A stretch of 24,000 nt of DNA from Bacteroidales bacterium (GCA_029934735.1 JAOZLR010000001.1:4718-28717); one strand, 5' to 3'. Numbered from the stretch's first letter, positions 3,920 through 24,000 are shown. A program made the numbers and translations. The notes: a model not told the origin generated them from the sequence alone.

Positions 3920-4453
3920 CTATTTTGTCGGAATTTTTGCAAGAACAGGAAATCTTTGCTGCGCAAGATAGAAAGCTCCAAAGAACAGGGTATTATAAAA
4001 AAGATCACCGAGAACACCATTATTCAGGAATGGCAATCCTGCTGTGTAACTCTCAAGTAGTCCTGCAAAATTCTGAGGATAAAACGGACTTCCAATCCAC
4101 ACTGCAAAGTTTGTAATTACAAAGAACAGAACTGATGAACTTACAGAAGCAAGCAGCAGTGACCCAATCTTAACCCGGTTTTTTAACATCATCCCGAATA
4201 CTACAATAATTGCAAAGCTAAGGTAAACAGCTATCATATATGAATGGAAACCAAGGAGCATATCCGAAATAAACAGGGCTGCCATTGGTATTAAGAAAGC
4301 CAGATATTTCTTGTTAAAATAAGTACCTCCAAAAAGGGCCATTGCAGCTATAGGAGTGAAATTAGGCCAGTGGGGGATAAGCCTGAAAGCAGCACCAGCA
4401 ATAATGACTGTAAGAATAAATAAGAATCTGGGGTTTAATGTCTTGTTGTTCAT
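3920..4453 (-). CDS. Polytopic membrane protein, DUF6580-like (putative transport protein)
   Basis: 177 aa. The N-terminal RLIPHWPNFTPIAAMALFGGTYF motif is as I recall it for the DUF6580 family. About 5 TM segments. Candidate TACTTTTG boxes lie on the minus strand at 4482-4489 and 4520-4527. Confidence 0.65.
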   Translation of the reverse strand: MNNKTLNPRFLFILTVIIAGAAFRLIPHWPNFTPIAAMALFGGTYFNKKYLAFLIPMAALFISDMLLGFHSYMIAVYLSFAIIVVFGMMLKNRVKIGSLLLASVSSSVLFFVITNFAVWIGSPFYPQNFAGLLESYTAGLPFLNNGVLGDLFYNTLFFGAFYLAQQRFPVLAKIPTK

Positions 4454-4533
4454 AGTTCAAATGTTTTAGATTTTACGATTACAAAAGTAAATAAATCATG
4501 GATATGAATATTAATAAAACAAAAGTAATTCAA

Positions 4534-5745
4534 TCAATTATCTACAAAGTTCTCATCTCCATATATTGCGAGACCGCCAAGAGCTGTTTCCCTATATAAA
4601 CTCGGGATATCTTTTCCAGTTTCTTTCATTACTTTTGTAACAACATCAAAGCTTATAAAGTGCTTGCCATCAGACAGAATAGAGAACCGTGCTGAATCGA
4701 ATGCTCTTACAGCACCATGTGCATTTCTTTCGATGCAGGGTATCTGGACCAATCCGTTTATTGGGTCGCAGGTTAAGCCGAGATGATGTTCTAACCCCAT
4801 TTCAGCAGCATATTCTATTTGAGAGGGAGAGCCACCGGCCAACTGTGTTGCTGCAGCTGCTGCCATAGCGCAAGCTGTACCAACTTCTCCCTGGCATCCA
4901 ACTTCGGCACCTGAAATTGAAGCATTTTGTTTTACAATATTCCCGATTAACCCTGCGGTTGCCATCGCCCTGATAATTTTATCATCACTAATCTCAAAAT
5001 GCTCCTGGCTTATTTTTAATACAGCAGGTAATATTCCCGACGAACCACAAGTAGGAGCAGTAACTACTTCTCCTCCTGAGGCATTCTCTTCGGATACAGC
5101 AAGTGCGTATGCAAAGATTTTACTGATAGTCCTGGAGTGATCACGCAAACCCTTTGATTTTGAATAATAGGAGGCTGCTTTCCTTTGTAGTTTTAATCCC
5201 CCGGGAATAAGTCCTTCGTTTGTAATTCCATTGGATATAGCCTTCTTCATTACTTCCCAAACTTTATGGAGGTAATCTTTTATTTCATCCCCTTCGGTTT
5301 CAAATACAAGTTCCCAAAATGTTTTACCAGTCTCTTTGTAATAGTTTAAAACATCCTGCATGTTTTTTTGGCTATAAATGTTTGTTGGTTTTGAGTTTTT
5401 GTTTTTATCGTCAACAATTTTTCCGCCTCCAACACTATACACCAACCATTTGTCGGGTTCACTGTTTTTGTCTGCTACTTCAAATTCTAAGGCGTTTGGA
5501 TGAAAATCCTTAGCTTCATCCTTTTTCCAGATAATTTCAACATTTGCAGGTTCTAATTCATTTATTATTGCAATATCAGTCAGATGTCCTTTTCCTGTTA
5601 ATGCTAAGCTGCCATATAAAGTAACTTTAAACGATTTTGCTTTCGGATGTTTGCTTTTATATTGTTGGGCAGCTCTGTCCGGACCCATTGTGTGACTACT
5701 TGAAGGGCCTCTTCCAATTCGAAATAATTCTTTTATTGATTCCAT
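4534..5745 (-). CDS. sdaA: L-serine ammonia-lyase (iron-sulfur-dependent L-serine dehydratase, single-chain form)
   Basis: N-terminus MESIKELFRIGRGPSSSHTMGP is diagnostic. Cys-containing segments TAPTCGSSG, GCQGEVGTACAMAA and LTCDPINGLVQIPCIERN match the Fe-S serine dehydratase family. Confidence 0.93.
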   Translation of the reverse strand: MESIKELFRIGRGPSSSHTMGPDRAAQQYKSKHPKAKSFKVTLYGSLALTGKGHLTDIAIINELEPANVEIIWKKDEAKDFHPNALEFEVADKNSEPDKWLVYSVGGGKIVDDKNKNSKPTNIYSQKNMQDVLNYYKETGKTFWELVFETEGDEIKDYLHKVWEVMKKAISNGITNEGLIPGGLKLQRKAASYYSKSKGLRDHSRTISKIFAYALAVSEENASGGEVVTAPTCGSSGILPAVLKISQEHFEISDDKIIRAMATAGLIGNIVKQNASISGAEVGCQGEVGTACAMAAAAATQLAGGSPSQIEYAAEMGLEHHLGLTCDPINGLVQIPCIERNAHGAVRAFDSARFSILSDGKHFISFDVVTKVMKETGKDIPSLYRETALGGLAIYGDENFVDN

Positions 5746-5758
5746 TTTCTATAACTTA

Positions 5759-16739: not shown

Positions 16740-18473
16740 TTATCTTATAAGTACAAGACTTACAGTTCTTGTATTTGCTCCTGATGTCAGGCGGCAATAA
16801 TAGACACCTTCTGCAAGGTCTGCATCAGCTGCAAATGTTACATTGTAACTGCCAGCCTGTTGCGATTCGTTTACAACTGTTTTTACCTCTTTACCATAAA
16901 TATCGAATATAGACAAGTTAACAATACCTGTTTTATTCAAACTGTATCTGATTGTAACCTTTTCTTTAAAGGGGTTAGGATAAGCACTAACCGAGACAAA
17001 ATCTGTTTTTTGTGGATTATCTCCTATGCCGGTAAGCTGTGGAGTAATTCTTCCGTAATAGACATCCTGCTCACCGTTTAGAGTGCTTGCCCAGGCGAGG
17101 TGTGCGCTGCTCTCGTCGGAAACCATATCGAAGTAGTCTCCCATTTTATTTTGGTTTGGCCATCCTTCATGTGGATCGAAAGCATCTGACAATCTTTCAT
17201 TTACAGACCATGTCTCTCCCTGATCTAGAGAATACGAATAATAAAGTGAAGACCAGTATATTCCAGGGTTATTATCGCGTGTATCAAGCCAGACTACGTC
17301 AATACGTCCGTTTGGTGCAACTGACATTGTGCCGAACCACTGGACATTACTTGTTCCGAAGTCATCATTAATCTTTATCGGAGCTGTCCAGAAACTTCCA
17401 CCATCAGTACTTTTAATAAACATCACATCTCCATCGTCAGAATTTGAGCTTCGTTTAACAGATGCACAAACGTAAACATTGCCGTGTCCGGGTCCACCTG
17501 ACTTGTCAACATCAATCCAAGCTTGTCCAAGCAATCCTGCAGGATTAACATCTGTCCATCCGGTAAGGTATCCATCAAGATTAATGGATACATAATTTTC
17601 CCATGTAGGTATGGTGCCTGAATTCATTGCATTAGTTGATTTGACGACAATCATATCACTATAACCACCTCCTCCAACTGTGTACAGATTTCCATCTGCA
17701 TCCACAGCAAGTGTTCCCCAATATGGAGAGCCGCTAATTTCGGTACAATCTTCATAACTCACACCCTCGTCAACAGAGCGAGTGAAAAATCCGGGATAGC
17801 AAATACTATATGATTGGTTCCAGTTTGCATAAATGTTTCCATCTCCTTCTCCTCCGGTTCCGTCGATCCTCATCCATTGCTTATCTCCACCTTGAGCAAA
17901 TGCAGTATCAACCCATTCAATACCACCAACTTCGGTTTTATATACATCGCACCAGTAGTTGCTATTGTCATCCTTTGTAAGGCTATTGTAATAAAATCTG
18001 CCTTCACTATCAACATCAAGAACCGGATCGGAACGGAAAACGCCAGGATCAATAACGCCTGGGAAAGTCCAGGTTTCCCCACCATCAAGTGTATATCCGT
18101 AACCTGCCTGACGAAAATTGCTGCTTACATTATCAAATTGTCTCCACCCGATTGCCATTCTGTTAAGATCCGCTGGATCAACTGCAATGGATGGTTCATT
18201 GCCCGCATCACCGAGAATATTTTCACCGGTTTCGTTTACATTGACCTGTGTCATAAAAAAGATGCTGTTTTCATAATGATATGCAGGAGAGGTTTCCCCT
18301 TTTGTATTCGGCATATATTTGTCATCAGGTGTCTCATTATGCATTAAATCTATTTTGTCTCTTGAGATTCCATTTTGGGCAAATGAGAGTGCAGGTGCTA
18401 GTATTAGAATGCCAAATAGTAAAACTATGCTACTCAGTCTGTTGTGATTTGTTTTTGTAAAAAACTTTTTCAT
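16740..18473 (-). CDS. Secreted BNR/Asp-box repeat (sialidase-fold-like) protein with a T9SS C-terminal sorting domain
   Basis: Signal peptide MKKFF...LAPALSFAQ. Three Asp-boxes (TLDGGETW, STDGGSFW, SLDQGETW). The C-terminal ~80 aa, YPNPFKEKVTIRYSL...GVYYCRLTSG...LVLIR, are typical of the Por secretion tail. Confidence 0.85.
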   Translation of the reverse strand: MKKFFTKTNHNRLSSIVLLFGILILAPALSFAQNGISRDKIDLMHNETPDDKYMPNTKGETSPAYHYENSIFFMTQVNVNETGENILGDAGNEPSIAVDPADLNRMAIGWRQFDNVSSNFRQAGYGYTLDGGETWTFPGVIDPGVFRSDPVLDVDSEGRFYYNSLTKDDNSNYWCDVYKTEVGGIEWVDTAFAQGGDKQWMRIDGTGGEGDGNIYANWNQSYSICYPGFFTRSVDEGVSYEDCTEISGSPYWGTLAVDADGNLYTVGGGGYSDMIVVKSTNAMNSGTIPTWENYVSINLDGYLTGWTDVNPAGLLGQAWIDVDKSGGPGHGNVYVCASVKRSSNSDDGDVMFIKSTDGGSFWTAPIKINDDFGTSNVQWFGTMSVAPNGRIDVVWLDTRDNNPGIYWSSLYYSYSLDQGETWSVNERLSDAFDPHEGWPNQNKMGDYFDMVSDESSAHLAWASTLNGEQDVYYGRITPQLTGIGDNPQKTDFVSVSAYPNPFKEKVTIRYSLNKTGIVNLSIFDIYGKEVKTVVNESQQAGSYNVTFAADADLAEGVYYCRLTSGANTRTVSLVLIR

Positions 18474-18605
18474 AATTATTTTTCTTTTAAAACATTAAAG
18501 TATATGTGATTTATATATTGGACAAATGTATGTGTTTTTTGGTTGTATGCAGTCGAAATATTGTTTATGTTATGTCAGAAGTAATTATATACCCAAGTTT
18601 CGTTA

Positions 18606-19412
18606 TTATAGTACTTTTCTGATCTTAACAAGTTTTCCCAGAAGATCTTCCAGAAGATTAAGTGGCAACATATTGGCGCCGTCGGAAAGGGCGTTTGCAG
18701 TGTCGGGGTGTGTTTCTATGAAAAGTCCGTCAATACCAACTGCTATTCCAGCTTTAGCGATGATTTCAATAAGCTCTGGTTGGCCTCCAGTTACTCCTGC
18801 TGCCTGGTTTGGTCTTTGAAGTGAGTGGGTGCAGTCCAGAATGACCGGAACATTCAATGATTGCATTGCCGGTATTCCTCTATAATCAACAACGAGATCC
18901 TGATACCCAAATGTAGTACCTCTTTCTGTAAGCATAATCTTGTTATTACCTGAGTCCAGAACCTTCTGAACGGCATACTTCATAGCCTCTGGCGATAAAA
19001 ACTGCCCCTTTTTGATATTTACAACCTTACCGGTCTTTGCTGCTGCTACCAACAAATCTGTCTGCCGGCAAAGGAAAGCTGGAATTTGTAATACATCAAC
19101 AAATTCGGCAGCAAGTCTTGCCTCTTCAGGACTATGTACATCAGTAAGAATGGGAATATTGAGCTCGTCTCTGACCTTTTTAATTACCTCAAGTCCTTTC
19201 AGGTCACCTATTCCGGTAAAAGAATCCAGCCGTGAACGGTTTGCCTTATTGTATGAGGCTTTAAAAATGTAGGGAATTTGCAGCTTGTCGGTTATAGCCA
19301 TTATTTTTCGGGCTATCTCAAGAGGCATAGTCTCATTTTCCACAACACACGGACCGGCAATTAGAAAAAAGTTACCGGAATCTTTATATCTTAATAATGG
19401 AATGTCAAACAT
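18606..19412 (-). CDS. kdsA: 3-deoxy-8-phosphooctulonate (KDO-8-P) synthase
   Basis: FLIAGPCVVENE, FKASYNKANRS, LTDVH, KKGQFLSP and DCTHSLQ are characteristic of KdsA. 268 aa. Confidence 0.93.
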   Translation of the reverse strand: MFDIPLLRYKDSGNFFLIAGPCVVENETMPLEIARKIMAITDKLQIPYIFKASYNKANRSRLDSFTGIGDLKGLEVIKKVRDELNIPILTDVHSPEEARLAAEFVDVLQIPAFLCRQTDLLVAAAKTGKVVNIKKGQFLSPEAMKYAVQKVLDSGNNKIMLTERGTTFGYQDLVVDYRGIPAMQSLNVPVILDCTHSLQRPNQAAGVTGGQPELIEIIAKAGIAVGIDGLFIETHPDTANALSDGANMLPLNLLEDLLGKLVKIRKVL

Positions 19413-19433
19413 AATGTTTTATTTTATTGAGCA

Positions 19434-19441
19434 CAAATATA
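19434..19441 (-). promoter_or_regulatory. Candidate -7 box (TATATTTG on the minus strand) for kdsA
   Basis: 21 nt upstream of the ATG at 19412. Confidence 0.4.
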
Positions 19442-19481
19442 CATATTTCAAAAAAACACCTGTATATATTAATAAGAGTGG

Positions 19482-19499
19482 GCAAGCGTCCACGCTTGC
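19482..19499. repeat. Perfect hairpin GCAAGCG-TCCA-CGCTTGC, a variant of the GCGTCCACGC repeat family
   Basis: It shares the 10-nt core GCGTCCACGC and an upstream TAAGAG with the 8851-8958 array. Intergenic, upstream of the kdsA promoter box. Confidence 0.6.
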
Positions 19500-19543
19500 A
19501 TGAAAAAACTGAAAGAACAAAAATATACATTTATAATCTGATA

Positions 19544-20134
19544 TTACTCAACAAACTCAAATGCTTCCACAAGGGTTTTTAGCGAACATATCCGTTTTTC
19601 CCAATCCCCTGATTTGTAAACAAGTGTTTGCAGAAGATATATCTCATTTACATCCGGCTTTTTAATGTAAACCACATTGCTGACAATGAACACATCATCT
19701 TCTTTCATCTCAAAGGCGAGCCAGTAGCTTTTTTGATCGTTAACTTCTATTATACCCGTTTCAAGAAGATTGAATACTGCGGACTTCTTCATTGATTTGA
19801 TTTCATTTCTGAAATATGTTTCAAGTGAATCGGTTGTTTTATAGCCCGAAACCGAAAGAGACATCAGCTTTGAATTATCATTGTCAATATCCAGGGCATT
19901 AGTGCCGAATATTCCATAAATAGTATCGGAATAGACCTCCTGAATATCCCAGCTATATGGCATTGTAATCATAAATTTATTCCCCGGATCTCCAATGGTT
20001 ATCAGGTCGCCAAAATCAGAATCGTCACTGCAATTATTATAACTTTCAGATACCGGAATACCCTCAAATGTTTTTCTTGAATGGCATCCAGAAACTGTTA
20101 TGACAATAATTGTAAAAAATAAGAGTCTCTTCAT
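19544..20134 (-). CDS. Hypothetical lipoprotein
   Basis: Signal peptide with lipobox MKRLLFFTIIVITVSGC. 196 aa. I recognise no family. Confidence 0.7.
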   Translation of the reverse strand: MKRLLFFTIIVITVSGCHSRKTFEGIPVSESYNNCSDDSDFGDLITIGDPGNKFMITMPYSWDIQEVYSDTIYGIFGTNALDIDNDNSKLMSLSVSGYKTTDSLETYFRNEIKSMKKSAVFNLLETGIIEVNDQKSYWLAFEMKEDDVFIVSNVVYIKKPDVNEIYLLQTLVYKSGDWEKRICSLKTLVEAFEFVE

Positions 20135-20151
20135 TTAACGATATATTTCTG

Positions 20152-20159
20152 CAAAGGTA
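20152..20159 (-). promoter_or_regulatory. Candidate -7 box (TACCTTTG on the minus strand) for the lipoprotein gene
   Basis: 17 nt upstream of the ATG at 20134. Confidence 0.35.
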
Positions 20160-20263
20160 CATTTCTGAGTTTGTTTTTTCCATATTGTTTGAAATAAAAA
20201 TTTTATAGAAACAAATAAGCAAATAACTTCCTTTTGAAAATATGCGTTGTTGATGAGTTTTAT

Positions 20264-20271
20264 TATTTTTG
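20264..20271 (+). promoter_or_regulatory. Candidate -7 box (TATTTTTG) for the vsr-dcm-orf109-HNH-Z1 cluster
   Basis: 28 nt upstream of the vsr ATG at 20300. It is the only such box I see before this tightly packed co-directional cluster. Confidence 0.4.
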
Positions 20272-20299
20272 CTGATATTTTAGAATGTTTATCTGAATT

Positions 20300-20722
20300 A
20301 TGTCTGACGTACATGACAAAATAACTAGGAGTTATAATATGTCAATGATAAAGGGTAAAGATACAAAACCTGAAATTATTGTAAGGAAATTTTTGTTTCA
20401 GAATGGATTCAGATACAGAATCAATTTTACAAAATTGCCAGGAAAACCTGACATTGTCTTGCCAAAGTACAAAACCGTTATTTTTATTAACGGGTGTTTT
20501 TGGCATGGACATAAAAATTGCAACTATTTTGTAGTTCCAAAAACCAGAACAAAATGGTGGATAGAAAAAATAAACAAAACCAAAGAACGTGATGTTTTGA
20601 TAATGAATGAATTGAAAAAACTCGGATGGAGAATATTTGTTATATGGGAATGTGAATTAAAAAGGGTAAAAAGAGATAAAATTTTTGAAAAATTATTACT
20701 ATTTTTGAAAAAATTAAACTGA
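20300..20722 (+). CDS. vsr: Very short patch repair endonuclease (T:G mismatch-specific)
   Basis: TRSYNMSMIKGKDTKPE...GKPDIVLPKYKTVIFINGCFWHGHKNC...WW..KI..TKERD are the Vsr family motifs. 140 aa. Its stop overlaps the dcm start (TGATG). Confidence 0.92.
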   Translation: MSDVHDKITRSYNMSMIKGKDTKPEIIVRKFLFQNGFRYRINFTKLPGKPDIVLPKYKTVIFINGCFWHGHKNCNYFVVPKTRTKWWIEKINKTKERDVLIMNELKKLGWRIFVIWECELKRVKRDKIFEKLLLFLKKLN

Positions 20723-21897
20723 TGAATTTTATCGATTTGTTTTCAGGTGGTGGAGGCTTGTCTGAAGGCTTTGTCCGACAGGGATTTAAGCCTGTTGCTC
20801 ACGTTGAAACAGACAGGGCATCATGCAATACTATATTAACCAGAATCGCATATTATTATTTATCAGAAACCGGTAATAATGAGGTATATATTCAATATCT
20901 GAAGAGGCAAATAACTCGAAATGAATTGTATGAATATCTTCCTGACAGTCTAAAAATGTCCATAATTAATAAACCTATTGGAAAAGAAAGTAATAGGGAG
21001 ATATTCAGACGGATAAATGATGTGAAAGGGACTAAAAAAATTGATTTGATTATCGGAGGACCTCCTTGTCAGGCGTACTCTCTTGTTGGCAGAGCAAGAG
21101 ATGCATATAGTATGAAGTATGATGAAAGAAATTACCTTTATGTTCAGTATGCTGAATTCCTTAAAAAGTTTGAACCTGAATTCTTTATTTTTGAAAATGT
21201 TTCAGGTATGCTTTCTGCTAGAACCTCTGGCGGGGAAAAATACCTTGAAAAAATGATCAGGTTGTTTCGTGAGGTTGGATATGAGACTGAGTATGAATTA
21301 TTAAATGCTAAAGATTTTGGGGTTTTACAAAATAGAAAAAGAGTTATTCTAATTGGTAAAAAAGGAACTAAAAAAGGTTTTTATCCAAATTTCAAAAAGA
21401 AAGACTCAAAAGTTAATGTCGAAGAAATATTTAAAGGATTACCTAAATTAAAAGCAGGAGAAGGTAATTTTTTTGAAACAAAGTACACAAAAGATACTTC
21501 CGAATACCTAAAAGAAATTAAAGTTCAAAACGGTTTAGATTTTACAACACAACACATTGCAAGACCACATAATGAGCAAGATAAAGAAATATATCGAATT
21601 GCAATAAATAAATGGAATGAAAATGGAGAACGTTTAAATTATAACGATTTACCTGATAGATTAAAATCCCATAAAAATAGAAATTCTTTTACTGACAGAT
21701 TTAAAGTTGTTGCAGAAGAATTACCTGCTTGTCATACTGTTGTAGCACATATAGCAAAGGATGGACATTATTATATCCACCCAGATATTAAACAAAATCG
21801 TTCAATAACACCGAGAGAAGCAGCTAGATTACAATCATTTCCTGATGATTATTTCTTTGAAGGTCAAAATGACAAGCCTAGTAGAACTGCTGCATAA
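20722..21897 (+). CDS. dcm: DNA (cytosine-5)-methyltransferase, apparently truncated at the C-terminus (motifs I-IX present, motif X absent); possibly a pseudogene
   Basis: Motif I DLFSGGGGLSEGF, IV GGPPCQAYS, VI FENVSGM, VIII QNRKRV, IX RSITPREAARLQSFPDDYFF. The ORF stops at ...SRTAA-TAA, and no GNAVP-like motif X follows in any forward frame. Confidence 0.85.
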   Translation: MNFIDLFSGGGGLSEGFVRQGFKPVAHVETDRASCNTILTRIAYYYLSETGNNEVYIQYLKRQITRNELYEYLPDSLKMSIINKPIGKESNREIFRRINDVKGTKKIDLIIGGPPCQAYSLVGRARDAYSMKYDERNYLYVQYAEFLKKFEPEFFIFENVSGMLSARTSGGEKYLEKMIRLFREVGYETEYELLNAKDFGVLQNRKRVILIGKKGTKKGFYPNFKKKDSKVNVEEIFKGLPKLKAGEGNFFETKYTKDTSEYLKEIKVQNGLDFTTQHIARPHNEQDKEIYRIAINKWNENGERLNYNDLPDRLKSHKNRNSFTDRFKVVAEELPACHTVVAHIAKDGHYYIHPDIKQNRSITPREAARLQSFPDDYFFEGQNDKPSRTAA

Positions 21898-21908
21898 AAA
21901 ATAACATT

Positions 21909-22238
21909 ATGAATACTATTACTAAAACAGAGATTGACGCTTATAAAGAACTAAAAAAACAATATACAAATATTGTAAACACTAGCATTCTTGAAAATTG
22001 TAATAAAATAGTTCAAATTGGTGCATATACTGCTGAAATTGACAAGAATAATATTGTTACTCTTTCTCGAAATAAGTTCCCTTCTCAGTTTACTGAAAAA
22101 TCAGCAAATGATATTGTAAATATGAACTGGACTTCATCCAATAATAAAAAGGCAAATATTGAGATTTATAATATTAAAGATTGGTATAGAGGAAAAATAG
22201 AAGCATTAAATTTCATTATTAAAAACTATAATAATTAA
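21909..22238 (+). CDS. Hypothetical 109-aa protein (orf109), translationally coupled to the HNH nuclease gene
   Basis: Uninterrupted ORF in a dense operon. It starts 11 nt after the dcm stop and ends 1 nt before the HNH start. No TM segment, signal peptide or motif that I recognise. Confidence 0.55.
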   Translation: MNTITKTEIDAYKELKKQYTNIVNTSILENCNKIVQIGAYTAEIDKNNIVTLSRNKFPSQFTEKSANDIVNMNWTSSNNKKANIEIYNIKDWYRGKIEALNFIIKNYNN

Positions 22239-22239
22239 T

Positions 22240-23010
22240 ATGCAGAGACGTAATTGGACAAAAGATGAACTAATTCTTGCTTTTTCTTTATACCTTAAAC
22301 TTCCTTTTGGAAAAATGCATAGAAATAATCCAGATATTATTTATTTATCTAAAATAATAAATAGAACACCTAGTGCTGTCGCAATGCGTCTATCTAATTT
22401 TGCTAGTTTAGATCCATTTCATCAACAAAGAGGAGTAAAAGGTTTAACAGGAGGAATATCTATTTGTAAACCAATTTGGGATGAATTCATAGGTAATAGA
22501 GAGGATTTATTATATAAAAGTGAAAATATTTTAGCAAAGAAAGAAAATACAGATATAGAACTAAAATATTCGGATATTTTAAAAGATACTCAAAATTTAA
22601 AAGGTGAAATAAAAGAGCGTATTGTAAAGACAAGAGTTAATCAATCTGTTTTCAGAAAAATTATTTTATCTACATATACTCAAAAATGTGCAATAAGTGG
22701 AATTGATATTCCTCAATTATTAGTAGCAAGTCATATTATCCCGTGGTCTAAAAGCGAAAAAGAAAGATTAAATCCTTCAAATGGTATATGTTTATCATCA
22801 TTATATGACAAAGCATTTGATATTGGCTTAATAGGAATAAAAAAGGATTATACAGTGATATTATCCAATAAAATAAAGGATAAGTCAAAAATGGATTATT
22901 ATAATACTTATTTCAAGAATATAGAAAATCAAAAAATATTATTGCCAGAAAGGTATCAGCCTGATTTGAATTTTTTAGAATATCATTTAGATACCATTTT
23001 TCAAAAGTAA
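22240..23010 (+). CDS. HNH-family nuclease of the predicted-restriction-endonuclease type (COG3183 / HNH_2-like) with an N-terminal SANT/Myb-like helical domain
   Basis: RVNQSVFRKIILSTYTQKCAISGIDIPQLLVASHIIPWS...NPSNGICLSSLYDKAFDIGLIGI matches the HNH_2 beta-beta-alpha-Me pattern (catalytic His in ASHI; Asn in NG). The N-terminus is NWTKDELILAFSLY...RTPSAVAMRLSNFASLDP. Confidence 0.8.
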   Translation: MQRRNWTKDELILAFSLYLKLPFGKMHRNNPDIIYLSKIINRTPSAVAMRLSNFASLDPFHQQRGVKGLTGGISICKPIWDEFIGNREDLLYKSENILAKKENTDIELKYSDILKDTQNLKGEIKERIVKTRVNQSVFRKIILSTYTQKCAISGIDIPQLLVASHIIPWSKSEKERLNPSNGICLSSLYDKAFDIGLIGIKKDYTVILSNKIKDKSKMDYYNTYFKNIENQKILLPERYQPDLNFLEYHLDTIFQK

Positions 23011-23049
23011 ATTGTCAGAAAAACAAAAGGACGTTGGGACAGGCGAGGA

Positions 23050-24000
23050 ATGGTTGTTGGAAATGTTCAATCAGGTAAAACAGCAAATTATACAGGACTT
23101 ATTAATAAAGCAACTGATGCAGGATATAAATTAATAATTGTAATTGCTGGAATTCACAATAGTTTAAGGGCTCAAACTCAAAGTAGAATAGATGAGGGCT
23201 TTATTGGTAGAGATAGTTCTGATTTCATTTTAAGACAACGAAATATTAAAACTGGAGTCGGACATATTAAAGCTGAAACAGAAATATATTCTTTTACTTC
23301 TTCTGATGCAAAAGGTGACTTCAATAGAAATATAGCAACTAGAATTAATGTTCCTATTGGTGGACAAAGTCCTACCGTTTTAGTTATTAAAAAGAATAAA
23401 AGTATATTAGAAAATTTAATTTTATGGTTACATCAGTTTGCCATTGACAATGGAAATGGTGAGAATAAAATATTTGATGTTCCTCTATTGTTAATTGATG
23501 ATGAAGCGGATAACGCTTCTGTAAACTCAGGGACTGAATTAGATGTTAAAACCATTAACCGATTAATAAGAACTCTATTAAACTTATTTAATCAAAATAC
23601 TTTTATAGGATATACGGCAACCCCATACGCTAATATTTTTATTCCATCTTCCTGGAGTAAAAATCTGGAAACAATGGTAAAAGATATCAAACTTAAAGTG
23701 GGTGAAGACCTATTCCCTCGGGACTTTATCGTAAATATCCCTCCTCCCTCCAATTATATTGGAGCTGTTCAGGTTTTTGGATTTGAAAATGAAGAAACTG
23801 GTGAAGAACACGAAGGTTTAGATATTATAAGATTAGCCGAAGACCAAGAACCATTATTCCCGAAAAAAATAAATAAATATAATAAAGATGAATTACCTGA
23901 AGATGTTCCTTCTTCTTTGAAAACAGCAATTAAATCGTTTATCTTAACTTGTGCAATCAGGCGATTAAGAGGACAGGAAACGAAGCATAATTCTATGCTT
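23050..24000 (+). CDS. Z1-domain family SF2 helicase-like P-loop ATPase (partial; runs off the right edge; the N-terminal region appears to be missing)
   Basis: Manual translation in the same frame as the HNH ORF, open from 23011 to 24000: IVRKTKGRWDRRGMVVGNVQSGKTANYTGLINKATDAGYKLIIVIAGIHNSLRAQTQSRIDEGF...LLLIDDEADNAS...GYTATPYANIF...ILTCAIRRLRGQETKHNSML. Walker A is at 23059-23082 and DDEAD at 23497-23511. The first ATG is at 23050. Confidence 0.8.
   Translation, partial: MVVGNVQSGKTANYTGLINKATDAGYKLIIVIAGIHNSLRAQTQSRIDEGFIGRDSSDFILRQRNIKTGVGHIKAETEIYSFTSSDAKGDFNRNIATRINVPIGGQSPTVLVIKKNKSILENLILWLHQFAIDNGNGENKIFDVPLLLIDDEADNASVNSGTELDVKTINRLIRTLLNLFNQNTFIGYTATPYANIFIPSSWSKNLETMVKDIKLKVGEDLFPRDFIVNIPPPSNYIGAVQVFGFENEETGEEHEGLDIIRLAEDQEPLFPKKINKYNKDELPEDVPSSLKTAIKSFILTCAIRRLRGQETKHNSML

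Follow-up and report, generated by a model that had tools for sequence, protein, structure and literature searches.

A stop codon lying between two recognisable coding regions of one frame raises the question of whether a single gene was recently broken, whether the stop is read through, or whether two separate genes were brought together. This question arises in a 24,000-nucleotide (nt) stretch of DNA from a Bacteroidales bacterium (GCA_029934735.1, JAOZLR010000001.1:4718-28717; hereafter the window, with positions counted from its first letter), where an HNH endonuclease gene is followed immediately and in frame by Z1-helicase sequence having almost no N-terminus, and where the dcm methyltransferase gene further upstream is truncated. 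The original prediction, made from the sequence alone, took the arrangement to result mainly from a single replacement, in which the 3' end of dcm, the 5' end of Z1, and anything located between them were lost. Related loci support this proposal, and the best explanation overall, to which we assign a probability of roughly 0.8, is that an MZA-like defence island carries a replacement scar which has been inherited. According to this explanation, the window carries a Vsr-Dcm plus MzaBCDE-like island (paraMORC GHKL ATPase, DEAD-Z1 helicase, PD-(D/E)XK nuclease, and AIPR protein), in which a single recombination swapped an internal segment for a 1.1-kilobase (kb) cassette encoding a protein of 109 amino acids (aa) and an HNH_2 endonuclease. 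The replaced segment comprises the last ~21 dcm codons (with motif X), mzaB together with any other intervening genes, and mzaC up to codon ~121. The scar was then inherited, and the cassette with its immediate flanks appears also to have moved between related islands by homologous recombination.

The HNH stop codon and the helicase gene behind it

The HNH open reading frame (ORF; 22240-23010, on the + strand like all features below unless noted) encodes 256 aa with the C-terminus ...LEYHLDTIFQK and ends with TAA at 23008-23010. The 24 codons 3' of this stop in the same frame (23011-23082) correspond to IVRKTKGRWDRRGMVVGNVQSGKT and are ATT GTC AGA AAA ACA AAA GGA CGT TGG GAC AGG CGA GGA ATG GTT GTT GGA AAT GTT CAA TCA GGT AAA ACA. 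The earliest ATG, GTG, or TTG in the HNH frame after the stop is the ATG at 23050, three codons ahead of the glycine of the Walker A motif GNVQSGKT (23059-23082). The in-frame continuation, the position of the ATG, and its distance to Walker A are thus as originally described.

Homology to mzaC, the gene to which the Z1 sequence belongs, begins at K122 (AAA at 23020). What separates it from the HNH stop is a 9-nt spacer (ATTGTCAGA, 23011-23019) that is homologous to neither the HNH nor the MzaC protein. The spacer is unconstrained and its length varies between lineages with the same junction: 9 nt in the window (frame 0), 8 nt in loci L004/L005 (ATCTTTTA, frame +2), and 13 nt in loci L008/L009 (ATCTTTTAACCAT, frame +1), where 43 nt lie between the HNH stop and the ATG and two more stops occur in the HNH frame. 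The first mzaC-homologous base after the spacer stands in AAAACAAAAGG, and the stretch before it, back to the HNH stop, differs in each lineage; the family-invariant residue P121 has become R in the window and H in L008. Since the frame differs among lineages sharing the junction, an in-frame join is no more than expected by chance, and on these alignments it is a coincidence of the 9-nt spacer, reflecting neither a fusion protein nor programmed read-through. The original caution that an in-frame junction is only weakly suggestive was therefore right.

A leaky in-frame TAA, or a recent nonsense mutation in a single HNH-Z1 fusion ORF, had been named as the alternatives to a replacement. All that points to either of them is the in-frame arrangement of the window itself, along with the codons ahead of the ATG, which look translated (see below). 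On the opposite side stand the +1 and +2 frames of mzaC relative to HNH in L008/L009 and L004/L005, the extra in-frame stops, the spacer without homology to either protein, and the lengths of the HNH homologues. Among the 120 homologues listed of the 5472 found, lengths are 255-269 aa with query coverage of 98-100%, and the aligned ones end at the same residue; likewise, all six HNH loci that were aligned or read directly end at the same stop point. These lengths and the common stop point indicate that the stop at 23008 is genuine. Both alternatives were rejected on account of the unequal frames, and we regard them as very improbable. As a general caution, an in-frame stop between recognisable coding regions is no evidence of read-through until the frames of relatives have been checked.

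As for an assembly chimera or a sequencing error at the junctions, nothing specific suggests it, except that the source of the window is probably a metagenome-assembled contig. The same architecture, however, is present in independent assemblies from different samples (L004 and L005, L008 and L009, L016 and L017), and window positions 21339-22451, which span the left junction, are matched at 100% identity by a Logan assembly made independently (L018), which leaves an artefact with next to negligible probability. The junctions are thus real and inherited.

The gene to the right of the junction is an N-terminally truncated mzaC (23050-24000 from its ATG, running past the window end), which encodes a DEAD-Z1 helicase-like ATPase with the Walker B motif DDEAD at 23497-23511 and a Z1 domain from ~23914. 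Its frame is free of stops for 317 codons from the ATG, and for 330 codons from 23011 to the window end. This ORF matches the NCBIfam profile MzaC (NF041933) with E = 1.3e-85 (residues 5-330 on profile positions 126-460 of 806) and the PADLOC profile MzaC with E = 6.9e-76 (residues 6-330 on positions 132-465 of 952), as well as Pfam Z1 and ResIII; positions 1-125 of the NCBIfam profile are unmatched. The window fragment of 330 aa scores 288 bits and the protein of L008 scores 548 bits, below the NCBIfam equivalog cut-off of 1500, and values so far under the cut-offs suggest a distant MZA-like clade.

Close full-length homologues, 74-90% identical over the common part, carry ...DKILDKCVNPKTKGRWDRRGMVVGNVQSGKT with the tryptophan at about residue 127, and their extra N-terminal stretch ends with ...TDKILDKCVNPKTKGRWDRRGMVVGNVQSGKT. 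According to this alignment ~121 N-terminal residues are absent from the window, which bears out the original estimate of about a hundred. The full-length homologue P0004 was modelled with AlphaFold2 from an alignment of 30 sequences (mean predicted local distance difference test score, pLDDT, of 79). In this model a mostly helical domain (residues 1-117) is followed by a loop (118-126) and by strand β1 (127-134, WDRRGMVV), which leads to the P-loop. The linker at 118-126 suggests that the breakpoint is interdomain and that a complete RecA-like core is still encoded; in terms of the model, the cut sits between the helical N-domain and strand β1, and the DEAD-Z1 motor is predicted to be encoded whole. 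A sequence search of the PDB for MzaC relatives gave none, and a literature search on the MzaC N-terminus found nothing.

Related loci and the replaced segment

Contigs with full-length MzaC have a common gene order, namely a GHKL ATPase of ~495 aa, the Z1 protein, a DUF4420 PD-(D/E)XK protein, and an AIPR protein, for which the NCBIfam names are MzaB, MzaC, MzaD, and MzaE, respectively. In L001, L002, and L003, MzaB (NCBIfam NF041932, E ~1e-118) immediately precedes a full-length MzaC, behind which come MzaD and MzaE, and the syntenic comparison proposed originally for finding an intact ancestor thus yields loci with mzaB and a full-length mzaC. Upstream of these genes, dcm is found in L001 and L002; none was seen in L003, which has type III CRISPR-Cas genes instead. 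Between dcm and Z1 in the window there is no HATPase or MzaB ORF, the interval consisting of the 109-aa ORF and the HNH gene only. MzaA was seen in none of the relatives examined. Each of the relative loci with the cassette described below was seen in two samples, except L012 (one sample) and P0242 (protein only).

Several full-length MzaC genes in public contigs (L001 7453-10228, L002 10001-12747, and L011 10001-11746) are called as two or three ORFs. The splits are frameshifts coming from either sequencing error or decay, and because of them database matches to MzaC look at most 580 aa long.

On the left side of the cassette, dcm (20722-21897) encodes a C5-cytosine methyltransferase of 391 aa that lacks its last ~21-24 aa, including motif X and the C-terminal helix. 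Its match to Pfam DNA_methylase (E = 1e-51) stops at profile position 300 of 324, and the match to PADLOC DrmMII covers positions 5-390 of 422. Motifs I-IX are present, including the catalytic PCQ (FIDLFSGGGG, GGPPCQAYS, ENV, and RxxTxREAARLQSFPDD). The absence of motif X (QxGNAVP) and the helix is seen from the L001 homologue: the window Dcm ends with ...EGQNDKPSRTAA and a stop, and the 70%-identical L001 Dcm continues ...EGQTEKPSRTSAFKQIGNAVPVLLAEEIAKKIKDIY, with FKQIGNAVPVLLAEEIAKKIKDIY past SRTAA. According to the DNA alignment, dcm homology ends with ...SRTAA at the left junction (21893-21908). The stop TAA (21895-21897) occupies the site of a Tyr or Phe codon, which is TTT in L001 and TAT in L016, where the sequence reads ...GCTGCATATAAACATGAACAATATG; on this comparison the stop in the window arose by a point change after the original junction had formed. 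The last ~10 dcm codons vary freely (QNDKPSRTAA at window 21864-21897, VKNINNHTVLNYYYGYN at L004 600-655, and GRSAA at L008 60-88), unlike the gene body, which is conserved with a ratio of non-synonymous to synonymous divergence (pN/pS) of ~0.08; for positions 21613-21864, window versus L004, pS is 0.51 and pN is 0.04.

Besides the window, four other metagenomic lineages have the 109-aa ORF and HNH in the place of mzaB. The breakpoints are located at dcm codon ~391, just before motif X, and, in three lineages (the window, L008/L009, and L004/L005), at mzaC codon ~122. Both junctions recur in L008/L009, which have 74% nt identity to the window. On the left, ...FPDDFFFEGGRSAA is followed by a stop; after the dcm end ...FFEGGRSAA come the 109-aa ORF, HNH, the 13-nt spacer, and a 793-aa MzaC starting with MVVGNVQSGKT. 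Downstream, L008 keeps 5.7 kb of intact truncated mzaC (hereafter mzaC'), MzaD (327 aa), and MzaE (791 aa). L004/L005, with 85% nt identity, also have both junctions, but Z1 stops there after GNVQSG and is fused to the last ~80 mzaE codons. At L004 1744-2043 this Z1 remnant is joined directly to the AIPR/MzaE end, with RhuM-like and PemK toxin genes following, and the sequence points to an internal deletion that later took out mzaD entirely and the greater part of both mzaC and mzaE. In L016/L017 the left junction is the same (...SRTAA, then YKHEQYDYRKRI and a stop) and the right side is further deleted, a decayed 65-nt Z1 remnant (SGKAANYTRLINNATDAGYKLI) alone being left after HNH. L012 has lost both dcm, with a vsr remnant now directly upstream, and the MZA genes, so that a 108-aa ORF and HNH precede an unrelated gene. 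Finally, P0242 has the same left junction, with the dcm end read through into the small ORF.

Searches for further loci were mostly empty: with a profile of the 109-aa ORF, L012 was the sole match in metagenome_contigs and genome_contigs gave none, and a DNA pattern spanning the junction had no match in either genome_contigs or viral_contigs, which suggests that the architecture is rare. The upstream chromosomal flank of the window has no synteny with any relative locus compared. Read in this way, the locus is a clean, datable case of defence-island turnover: three genes were partly overwritten at once by a small nuclease cassette, and separate lineages have since passed on the resulting scar, recombined it, and eroded it further.

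Constraint and decay in the shortened gene

Substitution patterns bear on whether mzaC' is still used. Over 322 codons, the window and L008 genes have a saturated pS of 0.69, a pN of 0.094, and a ratio of substitution rates (omega) of ~0.05, and the same is seen against the full-length homologues. All 92 positions that are invariant or near-invariant from W127 onwards in a 30-member full-length alignment are kept in both the window and L008, the only conserved position lost being P121, just beyond the junction. Amino-acid distances from the short MzaC forms to full-length outgroups are no larger than those among full-length forms. Although mixed, the evidence from these comparisons leans towards purifying selection on the truncated gene, rather than decay, in the window and L008.

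Under the replacement explanation, mzaC' would be co-transcribed with HNH and still translated, with ATG 23050 as its start or, possibly, AUU 23011 directly beside the HNH stop. A promoter and terminator scan of 20100-23400 revealed no terminator between HNH and mzaC, and promoter-like sites in the same interval were not above shuffled expectation, in a scan that does not cover Bacteroidota promoters. The short MzaC may long have been useful together with mzaD and mzaE and yet be dispensable. Judging from the sequence comparisons, we put its continued function at about even odds. As for its dispensability, it is indicated by sister lineages, which have deleted mzaC.

Coding-like evolution is also observed ahead of the ATG, in mzaC codons K122-G131 (KTKGRWDRRG, 23020-23049), referred to below as the leader, which lie upstream of the first canonical start. 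Between the window and L008, the leader has five synonymous and no non-synonymous changes; by our count ~23% of its possible single-base changes are synonymous, and five of five corresponds to p ~7e-4. Between the window and L004, five synonymous changes and one non-synonymous change are found over 19 codons, within a flank as similar as the cassette. Residues W127-R130 are near-invariant in the family and begin strand β1 in the AlphaFold2 model. As the adjoining spacer diverged freely, coding-type constraint starts at K122. Possible upstream starts are few: the window has only AUU 23011, and L008 has no near-cognate codon except AAG. The leader conservation may stem from coupled initiation at a non-canonical start, from mismatch correction that reached the border of heterology as the cassette spread by recombination, or from chance.

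Comparison of the cassette with its flanks indicates that it has also moved by recombination. Within window positions 21265-21900, identity to L004 steps from ~79% to ~88% near 21600, ~300 nt inside dcm. For the same pair, pS is 0.40 in the cassette and 0.67 in distal dcm. The identity step and the lower cassette pS suggest that the cassette with its near flanks recombined between related islands, in a tract that, on these values, carried the cassette plus ~300 nt of left flank. On the right side, the flank is as similar as the cassette (89% versus 88%, window versus L004), and thus it was co-inherited with the junction; sliding identity between the window and L008, L013, or L001 gave no clear breakpoint of a right-flank tract. 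The cassettes of the window and L008 have diverged to a pS of ~0.67.

A number of observations weigh against an inherited scar with a still useful helicase. MzaB is present in every canonical locus examined and absent from the window, and a working system without MzaB is an assumption that the explanation has to make. The mzaC'DE part was deleted in three of the five lineages (L004, L012, and L016), which suggests that selection on mzaC'DE is weak or intermittent. No canonical start codon precedes the leader in the window or L008, and according to the structural model a start at ATG 23050 would cost most of strand β1 and the near-invariant WDRR. The genealogy of the flanks is not simple either: on neither flank do the loci with the cassette form a monophyletic group, the window Z1 is nearest to the full-length P0003 (92.7%, versus 87.9% to L008), and the window dcm is closer to the full-length L001 than to L016. 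Given such flanks and recombination, part of the apparent purifying selection could pre-date the arrival of the cassette. As for the HNH protein, neither Pfam nor PDB fold search found a modified-base reader domain (EVE/PUA, SRA, or SBD) in it. Finally, the window ends at 24000 inside mzaC, and the window evidence covers the 5' part of the gene only.

Several of these points could also be taken to mean that mzaC' and dcm are dead remnants awaiting deletion, whose conservation stems not from selection but from recent arrival of the cassette in each lineage by recombination into islands that were intact until then, the sequence close to the junctions having been corrected to that of the recipient. 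Such remnants would fit the further deletions of the MZA part in the three lineages, the loss of mzaB, conserved WDRRG codons without a canonical start ahead, the identity step at ~21600, and the paraphyly of cassette loci for Z1 and dcm. They agree less well with the co-inherited right flank, which still has only one non-synonymous change against five synonymous ones in 19 codons, and with L008, in which 5.7 kb of mzaC'DE are intact, with all conserved positions, despite the cassette pS of ~0.67. The spacer beside the leader has decayed freely, which implies that time has passed since the junction formed. We consider the dead-remnant explanation possible but rather doubtful.

The nuclease cassette and comparable systems

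The second cassette gene (22240-23010) encodes an HNH_2-family endonuclease with an all-helical N-domain (residues 1 to ~110) and a C-terminal HNH nuclease. It scores 47.3 bits against Pfam HNH_2 (PF13391; cut-off 21) and has the catalytic His and Asn, residues H165, N178, and N181 being invariant across 42 homologues. Among PADLOC profiles it matches HNH PDLC04132 (E = 1.8e-93) and Type II HNH PDLC03546 (E = 1.9e-40). Its nuclease half matches VcaM4I (6yex) with E = 1.4e-11 over residues 122-213, and NCBIfam PT-DNA_restrict is matched over residues 84-255 with E = 3.6e-17, below the cut-off. The top Foldseek matches are VcaM4I and TagI, both weak; in the AlphaFold2 model pLDDT is ~90 for the N-domain and the HNH core has low confidence. 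For the 110-aa N-domain, no PDB fold match was obtained at E <= 0.001. The gene is constrained as well (omega ~0.08, window versus L004).

Among other defence or housekeeping genes, HNH homologues are found as solitary genes whose homology ends at the stop, namely in L006/L007, L010, L014, and a Hymenobacter plasmid, and on this comparison HNH is an autonomous gene ending at its own stop. In the viral collection one match is full-length (45% identity) and the remainder cover the nuclease half only; the plasmid collection gave three matches, two of which are actually gonococcal chromosomes. The HNH gene of L006 (1358-2202) and L007, 88% identical to that of the window, stands alone between thioredoxin-family and Ppx-GppA genes. 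It keeps the last ~65 nt of the 109-aa ORF upstream, and therefore appears to derive from the two-gene cassette.

As for the first cassette gene, the 109-aa ORF (21909-22238) represents an uncharacterised small-protein family. It is conserved in all five lineages (the window, L004, L008, L012, and L016) with 43-79% identity and pN/pS of ~0.25-0.65, typically ~0.5, and judging from this pattern it is a real gene. The family comprises proteins of ~105-125 aa, with 54 cluster representatives at E <= 1e-3 and 208 profile matches, and its consensus is LExCNxIVEVGAxT..YPTQFT..WY. Searches of Pfam, PHROG, NCBIfam, and the PDB gave no match.

The idea that this protein supplies the missing dcm motif X in trans, based on the resemblance of its QIGAYT to QIGNAV, was rejected. 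The consensus of the wider family at this place is IVEVGAxT, in which Q is not conserved, there is no similarity in the four databases just named, and the frame relative to dcm varies.

P0312, a 134-aa protein encoded on an NCBI contig of 1.05 Mb, joins the N-terminal 22 residues of Vsr (MSDVHTPEQRSFNMSRIRSKDT) to a protein of the 109-aa family, which suggests another insertion of this family into a vsr/dcm module.

On its own, the HNH protein would be a restriction endonuclease, probably a modification-dependent one. It resembles VcaM4I, TagI, and the ScoMcrA-like phosphorothioate (PT)-dependent enzymes in its homologous C-terminal nuclease half and in being solitary, without a cognate methylase. 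It differs from them in the all-helical N-domain, which has no detectable similarity to EVE, SRA, or SBD, and in that PADLOC also places it near the Type II HNH model. Dependence on modification or methylation is thus suggested by sequence relationships. If the enzyme is modification-dependent, disabling the adjoining cytosine methylase at the same time would be advantageous.

A second case comes from Neisseria gonorrhoeae (L019, NZ_CP119142.1 369350-380099; locus 3965-5756), where a full-length HNH homologue with 38.7% identity lies between pheS and pheT. The genes ahead of it at this site are vsr, which is intact, dcm, reduced to a stub that covers Pfam positions 1-67 of 324, and an unrelated ORF of 113 aa. 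In meningococci the pheS-pheT site holds the NmeDI system (PMC7973814), and R.NmeDI is a different, 351-aa protein (PMC2095814). In comparison with the NmeBI/NmeDI occupants of this site, HNH stands where the 3' part of the methylase and the restriction gene should be, which resembles the window. Unlike in the window, dcm is cut after motif IV, the companion ORF is another one, and there is no MZA module. As far as these sequences indicate, the HNH family has thus twice, in remote phyla, replaced the dcm 3' part and its neighbours. Its recurrence after a broken dcm, in Bacteroidota-like metagenomes and in N. gonorrhoeae, fits a methyl-directed nuclease that is kept only once the resident methylase is disabled, and suggests a conflict between the two; it is no proof of either.

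The arrangement is a variation on already known systems, not a new kind. Operons of paraMORC, SFII(Z1), NRE, and AIPR genes with DCM and VSR were described previously (Iyer, Abhiman & Aravind 2008, PMC2292703), and an mzaABCDE anti-phage system was tested in E. coli (bioRxiv 10.1101/2022.06.16.496414). The window is similar to these in its helicase, which matches MzaC, in the dcm/vsr association reported in PMC2292703, and, through L008, in the MzaD and MzaE genes downstream. It differs in lacking MzaB and the ~121-aa MzaC N-domain, no MzaA was seen in the relatives, and the scores are below the equivalog cut-offs. If the truncated MzaC with MzaD and MzaE is indeed active, MzaB and the MzaC N-domain would be non-essential for such systems.

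Another relevant comparison concerns the CglI and NgoAVII restriction enzymes, which consist of an R subunit and a DEAD-Z1 H subunit (PMC5861437, PMC4267653). The CglI H subunit begins with its DEAD domain and has Walker B at 157-161 (PMC5861437); in the window fragment, counted from 23011, Walker B is at 163-167, and the PADLOC Helicase_II profile is in register (119-209 on 116-199). Both systems have a DEAD-Z1 motor with an unusual, Q-containing Walker A and a DDEAD Walker B, and the motor gene directly follows a nuclease gene beside a methyltransferase gene. The H subunit is essentially without an N-terminal extension, as is the truncated product here. Z1 homologues that naturally begin near Walker A, regarded in the original prediction as evidence against a lost N-terminus, do therefore exist among CglI-type DEAD-Z1 proteins, but they leave the replacement itself standing. 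Differences are that the nuclease here is HNH_2 rather than PLD plus B3 and is widespread as a solitary gene, and that the helicase belongs to the MzaC clade, is short by truncation, and has MzaD and MzaE beside it in relatives.

This likeness gives rise to one more explanation, a functional module swap yielding a hybrid defence system not described before, in which HNH and the 109-aa protein would take the place of MzaB and the MzaC N-terminal docking domain, forming a CglI-like nuclease/DEAD-Z1 pair with MzaD and MzaE. Translation of the short MzaC would then begin at a non-canonical start that is coupled to the HNH stop, and the leader would be conserved like coding sequence for this reason. 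As a corollary, the HNH family would be methyl-cytosine-dependent and would spread by overwriting the resident dcm, as at the Neisseria pheS-pheT site. Such a swap agrees with the tight HNH-mzaC' arrangement kept in three lineages, with the joint loss of a partner gene and a presumed docking domain at a domain boundary, with the coding-type constraint on the leader codons, and with CglI, whose DEAD-Z1 motor lacks an N-domain and works alongside a nuclease subunit that is a separate protein. However, HNH homologues are overwhelmingly solitary and persist after the loss of mzaC', the closest cassette relatives include a lone HNH in housekeeping contexts (L006), the leader of L008 has no plausible start codon, and the HNH-MzaC' partnership is a prediction only. 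We consider a module swap unlikely. Returning to the inherited replacement scar, its points of interest are the apparent survival of an MZA module without MzaB and the N-domain, start-less codons that are conserved like coding ones, and the recurrent pairing of HNH with a broken dcm.

Among the neighbouring genes, vsr (20300-20722) encodes an intact very-short-patch repair endonuclease of 140 aa (Pfam Vsr, E = 2.9e-33); in L016 vsr likewise lies upstream of dcm. Further upstream, on the - strand at 16740-18473, a 577-aa secreted protein is encoded, with a C-terminal tail typical of type IX secretion substrates. Such a tail, the low G+C fraction, and the annotation of several homologues as Bacteroidota proteins suggest a host from the Bacteroidota. 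Across window positions 18000-24000, the kdsA region has a G+C fraction of 0.33-0.43; the fraction is lower in vsr/dcm and mzaC (0.28-0.33) and lowest in the cassette (0.25-0.28), the island as a whole being AT-richer than the chromosomal flank.

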